A DNA stretch of 64,000 nt, taken from positions 1-64,000 of IMG/VR virus record IMGVR_UViG_3300037200_000120. One strand, written 5' to 3'. The DNA comes from a virus. The notes below the pieces were generated by a model. That model did no database searches and had not been told where the DNA came from. It saw nothing but the letters and a program-made list of their open reading frames with translations. The translations under genes were made by a program, and so were the position numbers. Shown here piece by piece: positions 7,013-62,627 of the stretch. Position 1 is the first letter of the stretch. Each line of letters starts with the position of its first letter.

Positions 7013-7413
7013 CCGAGGAAGTCTACGCCACGCCGCGCAAGCCGCTGACCCCGCGCCAACGGCTGAAAATGTGGGAGAGTCACCACGGCTGCTGCGTCGT
7101 CTGCCACCGCAGGATCACGGAGACGTCGTGGGTAGACGAGCACATCGTTCCGTTGGGGCTCGGCGGGACAAACGATCCGGCGAACCGAGGACCCGCCCAT
7201 GCGGGTTGCGCTCGGGACAAGACCAAGGGGGACATGGCCCGCATTAACAAGGCCAAGGACCAAAAGGCGGCCCACGTCGGGGCCGCGCGTCCCGCGGGCA
7301 TGATCAAATCGCCGGGCTTCGCTCCGCCGCCCGCGAAAGACCGAACCGTCTCCAAGACCGCTGCGGGCGATCCCGCCATGGCTCGACGCTTCGTCGCAAC
7401 GACTGCCAACTGA
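7009..7413 (+). CDS. HNH endonuclease
   Basis: CVVC...DEHIVPLGLGGTNDPAN...HAGCARDKT. Confidence 0.85.
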   Translation: MTEEVYATPRKPLTPRQRLKMWESHHGCCVVCHRRITETSWVDEHIVPLGLGGTNDPANRGPAHAGCARDKTKGDMARINKAKDQKAAHVGAARPAGMIKSPGFAPPPAKDRTVSKTAAGDPAMARRFVATTAN

Positions 7414-55522: not shown

Positions 55523-56071
55523 ATGGAAGAAATATGGAAACCCGTCACTGGCTTTGAATTAGACTACGAAGTTTCTAACCTTGGCCGCGTAAAGCGCATC
55601 AGCCCGAACCGGGCTGGAAATACAAGGTTCGTCGGGCACATCATAAAACCAATGATGAGGACGCGCGGTTACCTCGGAATCTGTCTATGGAAAGATAGGA
55701 AGCCACACTCCAAACTTATCCATCGTATCGTTATGGAAACATTCGTTGGTCCGAGAGGGAACAACACGACGAACCACAAAAACGGAATAAAAATAGATAA
55801 TATGCTAGATAACTTGGAATACGTGACTCACTCCGAAAACATACAGCACGCATTGAACGTGCTTAAATCATTCAGACCAAGAAGTGGTGAAACTCATCAT
55901 CGCGCGACGATATCTGATGTTGACATGATCAGTATATGCAACAGACTCGACGCTGGAGAACGGCCCGGACCCATCGCTTCAGAATTTGGAGTAGCATACG
56001 GAACCATACGCGATTTCAGAGATCGAAATGGGAGATCAAAAAACGTTACGAAGAAATCATCCGCGCCCTGA
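55523..56071 (+). CDS. Free-standing NUMOD4-HNH homing endonuclease
   Basis: EIWKPVTGFELDYEVSNLGRVK, HRIV..TF, NHKNGIKIDN..DNLEYVTHSEN; GAGGT RBS; low GC; opposite strand to its neighbours. Confidence 0.9.
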   Translation: MEEIWKPVTGFELDYEVSNLGRVKRISPNRAGNTRFVGHIIKPMMRTRGYLGICLWKDRKPHSKLIHRIVMETFVGPRGNNTTNHKNGIKIDNMLDNLEYVTHSENIQHALNVLKSFRPRSGETHHRATISDVDMISICNRLDAGERPGPIASEFGVAYGTIRDFRDRNGRSKNVTKKSSAP

Positions 56072-58160: not shown

Positions 58161-59579
58161 TTACGAGACCGTCACGCCTTCGGCGAGCGGCCGATAGCGG
58201 ATGTACGGCTTCCAAGTGCCGGTCACGGTCGGGCCCGAACCAACAACGATGTTGATAGTTCCCGCCGGCGCCATGATCGTGCCTGGATTGGCAATCAAAT
58301 TGGGACCGTTGGCATTTAGCAGCGCCGCCGTGGCTAGCGCCGTGCCGGCCAGGGTAATGGAGGCGCCCGCTGCGGAGCTAGCCACAGAGGCGGAAGCCGC
58401 GCTGATGGTCTGCGTGCTTCCCGTCGTCGGGATCACTTCGAACTGCACCGTCGCCGCCGTCGAATCGCCGCCGACCGCGCAAATCAGGAACAGCGCCTCA
58501 ATCAGAATTGGGCCACCGGCCACGGTGAACAGCGCGGCACCCGTGGTGAGCAGAATCGCCGCTTTAGTGATGGTCTTGGGCTGCAAGTCGACGACGCCTT
58601 GGAGCAGCGCGTCGATCGAGGCCGTAGCGCTCGGCAGATAGACCGCAGCATCGGTCTTGTTGCCGATGACGTCACGCTCGAGGACGTTGGCCGACGAGTT
58701 CTGCGCCGGCACGGCAAAAGTCGCCGCCGAAGGGAGCCCAGCCGGGGTGACAGCGGAGCCGCCCTGGAAAGCCACGCCACCGATTCCATCATACCCGCTG
58801 ACGAACCATGTCGAGCCGCCGACAGTATCGACCACGTTCTTGGTAATGGCGGTATTGTAGTTGTAGAAATAGCCGCTGACCTGAACGTCCACGCAGGCGG
58901 TCGTGGCGAAATCGACGACCGCGGTCGACCAGGCGCCGTAGGCATTGACGACGATATCGGCATTGACGACGCCGACCAATTTGACCATCGTGACGCCGAT
59001 GGTCGAGGCTGTGAACCCTTGATGGGTGAGGTTGAGCGTGAGATTCGACGCCGCCGCAGTCGTGATGACGTCCGTCACCGCCCCAACCGTCGACGAAACG
59101 TCCTGGACCAGCGCCGAGATATTGACGCCAGCGGCCTGAATCGCGAAGATCGTCGCCAGCGAGGCGATGTTGGCGACGAAGACGGGGAGCGCGCCGGGAG
59201 CGCCGCCGATAAAAGTATTCGCCCCCGTGATCAGAATGGTTGCGGTAGTCGCTGTTCCCAGCGTGAATGTCGCCGCCTCGGCGCCGACGCCTAGATTCCA
59301 GAAGGTCAGACCCGCTTTGCTGATCGTGAGGCCGCCGGCCGCGCTGATCGTCTCCGCATGCCCCGCCATCCAGACGATGACGTCGCCGGGGCTCGCCAGC
59401 GTGATCGCGCGCTGCGTCGTCTTGAGCGGCTGCGCGAACGAACCCGCGTTGCCGTCGACGCCCGTCGCCGAATTGACGAACCAGACCGAACCGGAAGTCG
59501 GAGGAATCCCCGCCGTTCCCATGGTAGGAACGCCGAACGAGGTGACGCCGAAAGGAAAATTGGTATAACCCATTGTCAT
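58161..59579 (-). CDS. Virion structural protein (head fibre / decoration candidate)
   Basis: TNFPFGVTSFGVP, WFVNS..G.DGNAGS..QP..T, GHAETIS. Confidence 0.7.
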   Translation of the reverse strand: MTMGYTNFPFGVTSFGVPTMGTAGIPPTSGSVWFVNSATGVDGNAGSFAQPLKTTQRAITLASPGDVIVWMAGHAETISAAGGLTISKAGLTFWNLGVGAEAATFTLGTATTATILITGANTFIGGAPGALPVFVANIASLATIFAIQAAGVNISALVQDVSSTVGAVTDVITTAAASNLTLNLTHQGFTASTIGVTMVKLVGVVNADIVVNAYGAWSTAVVDFATTACVDVQVSGYFYNYNTAITKNVVDTVGGSTWFVSGYDGIGGVAFQGGSAVTPAGLPSAATFAVPAQNSSANVLERDVIGNKTDAAVYLPSATASIDALLQGVVDLQPKTITKAAILLTTGAALFTVAGGPILIEALFLICAVGGDSTAATVQFEVIPTTGSTQTISAASASVASSAAGASITLAGTALATAALLNANGPNLIANPGTIMAPAGTINIVVGSGPTVTGTWKPYIRYRPLAEGVTVS

Positions 59580-59687
59580 GACTCCGAGAGTGCCCGGCGT
59601 GATTCGAACCGCCGCTTACCCGACCAGGGACACAGAGAGGATTGCGCTACGCGCCGCTGACGCCGGGTTTTGAGCCTTCGGGAGGGC

Positions 59688-60398
59688 TTAGAGCTTGTGC
59701 TTCGCTAGATAGGCGATGGCGCGTTGGAGAATGGCCTGATCGTCTCGACCGTAGCCGAGCATTCGATTGCAGCGGACGCAAAGGAGACCGCGAACCTTGC
59801 CGGTGTCGTGATCGTGGTCTACGGACAACTCTTGGACTACTTTCGTCCTCGAGTTGATGAAACTCTCAGGATTGCCGCATATGTCGCAAACATACCCTTG
59901 AGCTTTCGCCAGGGCGGCATATTCCGTCACGTCGATGCCGAACTTTTTCTTCAGCGTCCAATTGCGGACGTAATCGGCACGCTCTTGCGGCGTGAAGTAG
60001 TCCTTGACGGGAACCTCAGGCGGCGGCAACCAGAACAGATTGTCTTTCACCCACGGGCCGGTAGGATCGATCAGCCTGAGAACATGCTTTGGGCCTGGAC
60101 GCTCCCCGACATCGGCGAGGAAGGCGTCAAACCAGCGCCAGGAGGCCGGATAGTTGCCGGCCCCTAAGCGCAGCCTCGTATTTTTCCAGAGCGGCTTTAA
60201 CGGGTGACTGTCCCGCGCGTAATGGTGCGAGCAAAGCTTCTTGGCGAAAACGATTTCCGTGCATCCCTCGATATCGCACGTTCTCGTCAATTCCGAGTAT
60301 TCAGACAACGTACCGCTGGTGCGCTCGCTTTCGTAGCACCCAGTGCATAATCCGCGCCCTTGGTTGCGCTTATCTCTACCGCATTTCCTGCATATCAT
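59688..60398 (-). CDS. Free-standing endonuclease VII-family (homing) endonuclease
   Basis: LKKKFGI...EY......QG..CDIC...LSVDHDHDTGKVRGLLCVRCNRMLG; two N-terminal zinc fingers. Confidence 0.9.
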   Translation of the reverse strand: MICRKCGRDKRNQGRGLCTGCYESERTSGTLSEYSELTRTCDIEGCTEIVFAKKLCSHHYARDSHPLKPLWKNTRLRLGAGNYPASWRWFDAFLADVGERPGPKHVLRLIDPTGPWVKDNLFWLPPPEVPVKDYFTPQERADYVRNWTLKKKFGIDVTEYAALAKAQGYVCDICGNPESFINSRTKVVQELSVDHDHDTGKVRGLLCVRCNRMLGYGRDDQAILQRAIAYLAKHKL

Positions 60399-60479
60399 CC
60401 GGTTACGGCCATGGTAGGCCCCTCTGTTGAAGGAAGCCAACCATGTACCTTTTTGTTGACGACCAATCAAGATCAATCG

Positions 60480-62597
60480 TCAGACGCCAGGCCATTATTT
60501 CACCCTCGGTCGCTATCCCGAAGATCGTCCACTGAGGACTGCTGAACGTTTCCGCTCAGAGAAGACCATATCATGATCTCTCGAAAGAGACCCTGCGCAC
60601 TTCCCGCCGCTTGGCGGTACTCCCCGAAGGGATGGCCGTTGAACCTTCCGCTCATTGAGCGGCTCGGCTGCTGATTGTCCAATCTAGTTGCTTTTCAAAC
60701 TATCGCGCCCGCCGTTGCCGGCCACGCTGTAGTGAACTAGCTCTAAGGATGTTCCAGCAATTCACGCAGTTATTCGACAGTAGTCGCCTACTGAAGGACC
60801 CAATATGTGGCGTCACATATAGTAACGAGTCCCGTAGATCCCGCGGAAGTCGCTCCAACCGCAAGAATAACGCTCGTAACAAGCCGCTTTGGCGTTCTTG
60901 GTATCGACGCTTATGTTCGATTTGGATAGCAACTCCAAACCCGTCCTAAGTGGACTGCCTCATATTACTATGAGGGCCAGACTATATCATCATCCTGAAT
61001 ACTCAGGAGTGGGGCGCTTCGGCTCGCTTGAGCCTACGATCTCGCGATCTAGTCGTTGCACCTTCCGTCTCTCGACGGCTTGGCTCAGGATTGTCCCCGG
61101 CACCACCCGGTAGGAGATTCCCTGAGTTCACCCCATTCTTCGATGCGAGTCACCCCGCAAAGGACCTAATTCCAAAGAATTGAGTCGTTGTCCTGATCGC
61201 TAACTATTCGAAATGAATCGCTAATTCATCCCCGGCTTGCGCCTGCTGCACGTTTCCGCGCAGAGTGGACTATATCTTCATCTATTCAATACTGAATAGA
61301 GCTAGGAACTTCGGCCCGCTTGGGCCTACGGTCTCGCGACCTAGTCTCTGAACCTTCATCACGATATTACATGATGCTTGGCTGCTGATTGCCCAATCCT
61401 GCAAATTTTCAAACCGTCACGCTCGCCGTTACCAGCCACGTTGTGGTTTTGCAGGCTCTAAGGGTGTTCCAGCAATTCACCTAGTTTAGACAGCTCCAAT
61501 CATTAAAGCTGATGCCCTCGCGCTCGTACCACATCATCCCGCGCGGGATATTCGTCCTGATAAACCAGGCGGTCGCGCTGGAGAAATAGTGGCTGGCGAA
61601 GATCCCCTTCGGGAAAGCTCCCATGGCGCGCATCACGTTGATGTTGTTGTTCGCCGTGTCGCTCTGAAGCACGCTCTTGTAGATGCGGTTAGCTTCGAAG
61701 ATGAGCTGATAGGGGATATGGAGGGACTGAGGAAGCGCGGAGATTTTCAGCCCGCGCGAATTGACCGTGAGGCCGACCTGGATCAGCAGATCCTCGATTG
61801 CGGTTTCGGACAAGTCCGCCGCCGTCGTGAGGAGATTCGACTGAGAGCCGCCGACAGTCGGATGCGCATTGTTGATCATGCACGTTCCGTCGCCGCCCGT
61901 ATAGGCCGTGTTGAATGCACGGTTGTAGACGTTGGCCGCGATGTTTTCCTTGGTCTGCCGCATCGAGAACGCCAATTGCTGGGCGCGACGCTTGCTGACC
62001 ACTTCGTAGAGATCGTCTTTCAACTCTTCGTACGTGACGATGTAGCCGAGAGCATAGGCGACGTTCGTATAGCGAGTGACCGAACCCTGGGTTTCGGTGT
62101 CGTACACGATCGAAGTGCCTTCGTTCTTGACCGGCGCCAAGCCGAAGCCGGTGATTTCGACCTCTTCTTCGTACGCCTTGTCTGAGGTGTCCTGCTCGAA
62201 CAGATCCGACCATTCGGAAACGTGTTCGTCGTAGGAACGCCCCCACCAAGCCGCGATTCCTGGCCAAAGGGCCTTCGCTTGTTTGTTCGACGCAATTCGC
62301 TAGATTGCGCCCGTCGCTCTAAACGCGACCGCTGCATATCGCTATGCAGGCCTGACTATCTCTTGCCCCTCAATTGATCGATAGGGGCCGCACCATTTCG
62401 GCTCGCTTGAGCCTACGGCCTTTCGGCCTAGTCGATGAACCTTACGACGTGCTATGATCGTCGTCTTGGCTGCTGATTGTCCGATCGTCGGAATCAGAAC
62501 GAGCGGAGTTCCCGGCAATTAAATGCGATCCCATTGCGCATTACGGCGCAATGGCCCGAGTTTATGCAGGATGTGTGCCTGTAGTAATAACGGCCAT
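60480..62597 (-). CDS. Major capsid protein, 5 exons: 62568-62597, 61506-62275, 61183-61199, 60828-60907, 60480-60491 (302 aa)
   Basis: GGAGG RBS. The splice gives MAVITTGTHP|KALWPGI...REGISF|DQDNDF|DTKNAKAACYERYSCGWSDFRGIYGT|PGV*, 909 nt in frame. Confidence 0.9.
60492..60827 (-). ncRNA. Group I intron 4 (336 nt, no ORF)
   Basis: 5' exon ends in U, intron ends in G; AATTGCTGGAA, AATCAGCAG, TTCAACGGCCA, ATGATATGGTC; P1 GGGACU/GGUCCU. Confidence 0.9.
60908..61182 (-). ncRNA. Group I intron 3 (275 nt, no ORF)
   Basis: AACTCAGGGAA, AATCCTGAG, TGCAACGACTA, ATGATATAGTC; U|...G| boundaries. Confidence 0.9.
61200..61505 (-). ncRNA. Group I intron 2 (306 nt, no ORF)
   Basis: AATTGCTGGAA, AATCAGCAG, TTCAGAGACTA, AAGATATAGTC; P1 CAGCUU/GAGCUG and P10 UGAUUG/CGAUCA. 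Confidence 0.92.
62276..62567 (-). ncRNA. Group I intron 1 (292 nt, no ORF)
   Basis: AATTGCCGGGAA, AATCAGCAG, TTCATCGACTA, AAGAGATAGTC; boundaries CCU|...GCG|AAG. Confidence 0.9.
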
Positions 62598-62627
62598 GTC
62601 GGCCTCCTATGTTTCTCCAGCCAGCCC

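Follow-up and report, generated by a model that had tools for sequence, protein, structure and literature searches.

A free-standing DHHRN homing-type nuclease gene beside an intron-rich major capsid gene in a peat virus, and the plausibility of collaborative homing

The DHHRN family of nucleases was defined around F-CphI of cyanophage S-PM2 (Fang et al. 2018, PMC6083498); in that work, proteins whose catalytic motif is C-terminal were placed in a homing and restriction ('endonuclease') clade, whereas resolvases have the motif at the N-terminus. Within the literature covered, collaborative homing is proven only for F-CphI and the psbA intron, which are also the only DHHRN system whose biochemistry has been worked out (PMC6083498). 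Collaborative homing has been proposed as the first step in uniting group I introns and homing nucleases as one mobile unit.

The window analyzed here is a stretch of 64,000 nt, part of a 98,892-bp virus record from a peat metagenome with an estimated completeness of 95%. Its minus strand carries a major capsid gene that ends in a TGA at 60482-60480 and is followed, after 81 nt, by the ATG (60398-60396) of a nuclease gene, in close agreement with an earlier note on this DNA, which had placed an EndoVII-family gene 82 nt past the capsid stop (Table 1). The gene caller had opened the nuclease gene at a TTG (60440), which, judging from the alignment, is probably wrong; the ATG at 60398 was taken as the start because 16 of the 17 full-length homologues begin at an aligned M-x-C-x-x-C.

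Table 1. Features of the capsid-nuclease locus and of related loci. Coordinates with an L prefix are those of the related locus named; all others are those of the window.
Feature	Coordinates	Strand	Basis or carriers
Free-standing DHHRN (F-CphI-type, EndoVII-motif) homing endonuclease gene, 236 aa (probable function)	59688..60398	minus	Pfam, PHROG, F-CphI homology
C-terminal nuclease domain (predicted beta-beta-alpha-Me fold), CxxC...VDHDH...R...CxxCN	59706..59957	minus	Alignment, PDB matches, AF2
Nuclease N-terminal region: two zinc modules and W/F/R-rich conserved middle domain	59958..60398	minus	Invariant alignment columns
Five-codon uORF MAVTG* (ATG GCC GTA ACC GGA TGA)	60395..60412	minus	Read from sequence
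Hairpin hiding SD and uORF AUG	60407..60449	minus	dG -22.7 kcal/mol, z -3.7
11-bp hairpin starting at capsid stop codon	60457..60482	minus	Folding
Major capsid gene (PF25209)	60480..62597	minus	Rfam, Pfam, tblastn mapping
Capsid exon 1	62597-62568	minus	30 nt
Capsid intron 1	62567-62276	minus	Group I
Capsid exon 2	62275-61506	minus	770 nt
Capsid intron 2	61505-61200	minus	Group I
Capsid exon 3	61199-61183	minus	17 nt
Capsid intron 3	61182-60908	minus	Group I
Capsid exon 4	60907-60828	minus	80 nt
Capsid intron 4	60827-60492	minus	Group I
Capsid exon 5	60491-60480	minus	12 nt
Second free-standing homing-type nuclease (NUMOD4 + HNH_3), between two structural genes	55523..56071	plus	Pfam, PHROG HNH
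HNH genes on the 5' side of the capsid gene	L087:4981-5862, L088:5191-5841, L096:4429-5043, L102:5012-5851, L138:5208-5858, L141:5032-5859, L145:5024-5860
EndoVII ORF/group I loci	L047/L049:7133-8324, L054:6286-8321, L080:8001-8451, L041:18-997, L204:55-533
Intron site after P10			Window
Intron site L13			L295
Intron site W20			L245/L246; probably also P0244
Intron site F267			Window
Intron site after D270			P0126, P0127, P0244
Intron site F273			Window, L245/L246; probably also P0128, P0193, P0240, P0242, P0245
Intron site T299/P300			Window

The Pfam family Endonuclease_7 (PF02945) matched residues ~148-231 of the 236 in the nuclease (E = 4.9e-22), and the PHROG annotation was 'endonuclease VII'. 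The catalytic motif lies at the C-terminus, the feature by which PMC6083498 recognizes its endonuclease clade. In an alignment of 18 sequences, D220, H221, H223, R229, N237, C197, C200 and C233 were invariant and C236 nearly so (at least 90%; numbering of alignment A1, from which 26 is subtracted for the 236-aa protein), and the D-H-H-R-N and CxxC residues aligned to T4 EndoVII, Hpy99I and F-CphI (VDHDH); the catalytic residues and zinc ligands are, in the alignment, intact. The catalytic domain was 37% identical to F-CphI over 98 aa (BLASTP, E = 4e-18; hhalign probability 99.6%). By sequence, the best match of solved structure in the PDB was Hpy99I (3.6e-10), followed by T4 EndoVII (6.8e-7), of which only residues 9-74 of 157 aligned, to the C-terminal end of the nuclease. 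The AF2 model exceeded a pLDDT of 90 in the catalytic domain; with the whole protein as query its top Foldseek matches were T4 EndoVII (probability 0.92-0.96, E about 0.03) and Hpy99I, and VIA-align gave McrA (Z = 6.5) and T4 EndoVII (Z = 3.7), all of them modest scores.

The invariant columns of the N-terminal region, 140 residues long, outline two zinc modules (C3, C6, C18, C21 and C41, C46, C56, H59). No Pfam family matched this region at E < 0.1, a PHROG 'HNH endonuclease' family matched residues 3-65, and fold searches identified no clear match for the N-terminal and middle domains; target DNA recognition is the presumed role of the region. By domain order and alignment, the gene classes as a free-standing homing-type nuclease and not as a resolvase-type endonuclease VII. 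The 'EndoVII-family' label of the earlier note stands for the Pfam domain match but not for the resolvase type, the motif being C-terminal and the protein closer to F-CphI and Hpy99I.

A total of 93 distinct capsid 3' ends were gathered from IMG/VR, 84 of which were informative; the nuclease was found in 17 of these 84 loci and was absent from the 67 others (~80%), all with enough downstream sequence. The 17 sequence variants of the full-length subfamily in IMG/VR all lay 50-150 nt past the major capsid stop, a search with the N-terminal domain only returned 18 full-length matches, every one of them 50-150 nt after a capsid stop, and the position held even beside capsids only 36-42% identical to that of the window. 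In the nearest relatives (L081-084 and L247), which have no nuclease, the capsid stop is followed by a 181-nt spacer and the next gene; compared with these, a 792-nt cassette of leader and ORF (60479-59688) replaces the first ~66 nt of the spacer, and homology restarts directly past the nuclease stop. Single-sequence scans with the nuclease gave no match in IMG/VR or in GTDB genomes, the N-terminal profile found no copy in GTDB (185,579 genomes, one per species), and a metagenome scan with A1 returned, among the matches listed, mostly distant EndoVII domains.

On terminal branches the nuclease accumulated about 1.2 substitutions per site versus 0.086 for the capsid (~20 times faster), capsids 99% identical were paired with nucleases just 47-50% identical, and shortened copies were observed in L257 (206 aa), L155 (186 aa) and P0048 (178 aa, with a cluster mate of 246 aa). 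A fixed site, a patchy presence and a fast decay form the pattern of a free-standing homing endonuclease, unlike that of a core resolvase. The window and L245/L246 were sisters in both the nuclease and the capsid trees; the nuclease tree was too star-like to yield a supported conflict with the capsid tree that would prove horizontal movement. Sliding identity against the nearest relatives revealed no co-conversion tract, with values of ~80-87% along the whole capsid gene and no local jump. In the spacer, just before the next structural gene, there is a conserved element with a tRNA T-arm-like GGTTCGAATC motif (59590-59650, minus strand), 81% identical to L247/L251; it was not called as a tRNA, and it folded no better than its shuffles.

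The run GAGGGG (60424-60419) is the only Shine-Dalgarno-like (SD) sequence in the nuclease leader, and in the predicted hairpin it is paired with CCUUC, the AUG of the short upstream ORF (60412-60410) being paired too; none of 200 shuffles folded as well. The earlier note had described an RBS hairpin (at 60410-60445) and a uORF MAVTG* whose stop overlaps the nuclease start as ATGA, and both were recovered, the former over a slightly wider span and the latter by direct reading (Table 1). Among the homologue leaders, conservation of the five-codon uORF was not apparent. For the fold, 60 nt around the nuclease start in 12 homologous loci were compared with 81 capsid starts of the same loci: the mean SD/AUG pairing probability over -16..+3 was 0.64 versus 0.47 (p = 1e-5), and the mean z of the start-region fold was -3.5 versus -0.1 (p = 9e-8). 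The structure occluding the SD and AUG recurs across homologues beyond chance, and the nuclease is best read as having a conserved translational brake. RBS-sequestering hairpins are known on T4-type homing nuclease genes (I-TevI, Aeh1 mobE).

No U-run follows the hairpin that starts at the capsid stop codon, so this is no typical terminator; most homologues have at the same position, between the capsid and nuclease genes, a GC-rich terminator-like stem and then a U-run, which the window lacks. No promoter-like or terminator-like sites were found in 59500-60700, and contigs from three peat metatranscriptomes left 59500-60462 uncovered, a result uninformative for expression. The initiation region of the uORF (GAGGGGCC..ACCATGGCCGT, MAV..; 60405-60430) resembles that of the capsid gene (GGAGGCCGACATGGCCGT, MAV..; 62590-62612), both on the minus strand, a likeness that could be a partial copy or chance.

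The four inserts in the capsid gene were group I introns (Rfam RF00028: 82, 68, 52 and 50.5 bits; gathering score 50), and the same model detected none elsewhere in the 98.9-kb record. At 275-336 nt they are too short for protein coding and all four are ORF-less, as had been claimed; the claim that three introns fall in the last 110 coding nt also agrees with exons 3-5, which sum to 109 nt. Exon borders were set by tblastn with the intron-less homologue P0121 (302 aa, 92% identical). The joined exons comprise 909 nt, or 302 codons plus TGA, a length equal to that of P0121, and intron removal yields a full-length capsid frame of the PF25209 family. This capsid protein is highly conserved and abundant in metagenomes (>7,800 matches, mostly of 302-303 aa).

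In one contig from a peat metatranscriptome (run X3), 96% identical to intron 2, the terminal G of the intron (61200) is followed directly by its eighth base (61498); this is the junction expected of a truncated circular excised group I intron RNA, indicating that the intron 2 type is active in nature. Other peat metatranscriptome contigs, from a sample and study different from the source run and 93-95% identical to the exons, cross the sites of introns 1-4 uninterrupted (60828-60907, 62080-62277), and their 3' end is a different one (GTG TAA...). With their 5-7% divergence from the window and their other 3' end, these RNAs come from intron-less relatives in other peat samples, and they were rejected as proof of splicing here. 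In a separate peat DNA run, fragments of the nuclease gene, intron 2 and intron 3 were present with identical sequence.

At least seven intron sites were found in the capsid family (Table 1). At the DNA level the gene is most conserved in the block FDQDNDFDTKNAKA; the 3' sites lie in or beside this block, and three of them (F267, after D270 and F273) fall inside 20 nt of that block (FDQDNDF). The F273 introns of the window and L245 are orthologous and each other's closest relatives (75% identical), and the P0127 and P0244 capsid proteins break after FDQD. A strict sequence pattern for the F273-site intron recovered solely the L246 contig, and a back-translated pattern of the P0127 read-through peptide had no match in IMG/VR. 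At L245:5668-5760, and also in L246, there is a 13-nt insert with an in-frame TGA exactly at the L295 intron site (codon L13), followed by a possible GTG restart ahead of WPGIKA; P0193 likewise begins MWPG. The insert may be the scar of an imprecise intron loss.

Other nuclease genes were observed in the window and its relatives. In several relatives an HNH gene on the opposite strand, with repeated 'YFTG-PC-RGH' modules, separates the capsid start from the 209-aa gene upstream, which marks a second nuclease landing site on the 5' side of the capsid gene; both capsid-flanking nucleases are present in L088 and L096. The NUMOD4 + HNH_3 gene of the window is antisense to the flanking structural genes, and relatives (32% identical) occupy the same gene gap in L116, L286 and L290, with a further one in L142 in reverse orientation. 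Further HNH-motif ORFs occur in the same phage record at 7093-7227 (plus strand) of the window and, outside it, at 81401-81523 (minus strand). In unrelated IMG/VR and metagenome loci, EndoVII-domain ORFs abut group I intron cores or lie a few hundred nt from them, consistent with DHHRN nucleases being intron-encoded or intron-adjacent elsewhere.

We regard the gene as probably a selfish free-standing DHHRN homing endonuclease that always lands in the short spacer directly behind the major capsid gene. On co-infection, the enzyme would cut nuclease-less genomes in or near the conserved capsid 3' end, and break repair would then copy the cassette in; the three ORF-less introns lie within about 1 kb of the cassette, and co-conversion would for that reason carry them along (trans-homing). 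At least one of the introns might split the recognition site and so shield the carrier, which would amount to collaborative homing, and the hairpin, possibly together with uORF coupling, would hold nuclease synthesis low or late. A fair reading is that the nuclease itself has no need of the introns, and that neighboring introns would travel along by co-conversion. Collaborative homing here is plausible; that any of these introns also blocks self-cleavage, as in S-PM2, is an analogy to which we would give somewhat less than an even chance.

In its strict form, collaborative homing would have the recognition or cleavage site in the conserved capsid 3' block, with introns at F267, F273 and/or T299 giving immunity and three introns piled up by repeated attack; we consider this possible, though less likely than not. 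Gene order and type of nuclease are those of F-CphI/psbA, in which the intron blocks self-cleavage, and the F267, D270 and F273 sites cluster within the most conserved block. All three lineages with 3'-proximal (FDQDNDF-block) introns and a known neighborhood carry the nuclease (the window, L245/L246 and P0127/P0244), and 3' capsid introns were found in none of the 67 nuclease-less loci. Two of these three lineage links are, however, based on equal-sized contigs only, the P0127 and P0244 capsids having been linked to a nuclease through contigs equal in size (137,305 and 19,903 nt) to those of nucleases P0048 and P0012; as sister lineages, the window and L245/L246 count as one event; and Fisher's test on the IMG/VR sample alone gave p of about 0.045 before correction for relatedness. 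Group I introns, moreover, prefer conserved sites anyway.

Also against the strict form, 15 of the 17 nuclease variants adjoin uninterrupted capsid genes, with an intact FDQDNDFDTKN block whose DNA is like that of nuclease-less phages, and introns are thus not generally needed for self-immunity. In a comparison by eye, no DNA position in the last 132 capsid nt separated nuclease-bearing intron-less loci from nuclease-less ones, and neither an immunity signature nor a cleavage target could be derived from the capsid 3' DNA. The co-occurrence of nuclease and introns to which the earlier note had looked was thus found from the side of the 3' introns, but not from that of the nuclease, most of whose variants are intron-less; and its proposal of collaborative homing is supported in part, by the free-standing homing-type nuclease, the RBS hairpin and the F-CphI/psbA-like layout, with the same intron-less majority counting against it.

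A broader and rather unlikely interpretation is that the capsid gene is the site of an arms race, in which the 3' DHHRN nuclease and the unrelated 5' HNH nuclease repeatedly attack its two most conserved blocks, and ORF-less introns were selected as insertional 'armor' against successive specificities. If true, it would explain the number of intron sites in the family and the crowding of three introns into the last exons here, and would make one trans-acting nuclease the shared mobility engine of several introns.

It is improbable that nuclease and introns are independent parasites, the former homing on the spacer or next gene or excluding rival phages, and the latter arriving separately (by reverse splicing or by intron-encoded nucleases since lost) and clustering by block conservation only. 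Such independence would suit the spread of the intron sites, some of them 5' and ~2 kb of genomic sequence (~0.9 kb coding) from the nuclease, the distinct HNH gene that flanks the capsid 5' end in other relatives, and the intron-less state of most nuclease carriers. It is also favored by L295, the sole intron-bearing phage without the nuclease, whose intron lies at the capsid 5' end and makes intron 1 and its 5' neighbors look independent of the nuclease. Against it, every known 3'-intron lineage has the nuclease, and any double-strand break beside the capsid stop would be expected to co-convert introns 12-1025 bp away, by extension from the T4 mobE/I-TevIII trans-homing described in PMC2790892.

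Finally, it is very improbable that the gene encodes a housekeeping endonuclease VII, resolving Holliday junctions or serving in packaging, and lies near introns by chance: although Pfam and PHROG name it endonuclease VII, and the phage record has no RusA or RuvC match, so that this alternative can be dismissed only by architecture and distribution and not by redundancy, the motif is C-terminal, the dimerization part of T4 EndoVII is missing from the match, the sequence-specific Hpy99I scores better, the gene is missing from the closest relatives and from most related loci, it evolves fast and has shortened copies, and PMC6083498 puts C-terminal-motif proteins in the homing/restriction clade.

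If the gene is a selfish homing endonuclease, as preferred here, 'endonuclease VII' annotations beside structural genes can mask homing nucleases. The presence of the same nuclease at one spot in some related phages and not in others offers a natural system for studying teamwork between nucleases and introns. The phage family constitutes a natural comparison series, in which ~17 divergent nuclease alleles share a single fixed site, the capsid alleles beside them have zero, two or four introns, and several of the intron sites lie in one conserved 20-nt block; it would allow tests of intron protection, of specificity drift and of whether one nuclease mobilizes several introns.

Among known systems, T4 endonuclease VII (gp49), a Holliday-junction resolvase, shares the zinc ligands and the D-H-H-N residues with the present nuclease, for which its beta-beta-alpha-Me core is predicted too, but its motif is N-terminal and followed by dimerization helices, whereas here it is C-terminal, behind a presumed DNA-binding region; in addition, gp49 belongs to the core genome of its phages and the present gene is sporadic. 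Hpy99I, which has the same motif and cuts duplex DNA at specific sequences, is the best solved match, reaching the C-terminal helix; it differs in that the present nuclease has no methylase partner, a phage context and another N-terminal region. The T4-type free-standing homing endonucleases (seg and mob, including the trans-homing of the I-TevIII intron by mobE), as described in PMC2790892 and PMC2988022, resemble the present gene in being optional genes between conserved genes and in their mobility without an intron of their own ('intronless homing'), by which neighboring introns can be carried along; they are GIY-YIG or HNH proteins, whereas the present enzyme is DHHRN.

The closest likeness is with F-CphI and the ORF-less psbA intron of S-PM2 (PMC6083498). 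Both nuclease genes are free-standing and lie in the same orientation a short gap past an intron-bearing conserved gene (66 nt in S-PM2, 81 nt here), both enzymes have a C-terminal EndoVII/DHHRN motif, with identity extending over the whole catalytic domain, and the introns are ORF-less in both. The neighboring target gene is psbA there and, presumably, the major capsid gene here; one intron is found there and four here, with exons as short as 17 and 12 nt; F-CphI has 142 aa, whereas the present nuclease, with its two zinc modules and extra middle domain, has 236; and, in contrast to F-CphI, most relatives of the present nuclease adjoin intron-less genes, and the enzyme itself is known from sequence. 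Collaborative homing at this locus would repeat the principle known from F-CphI/psbA, but with another gene, several introns and a presumed DNA-binding architecture that is new.
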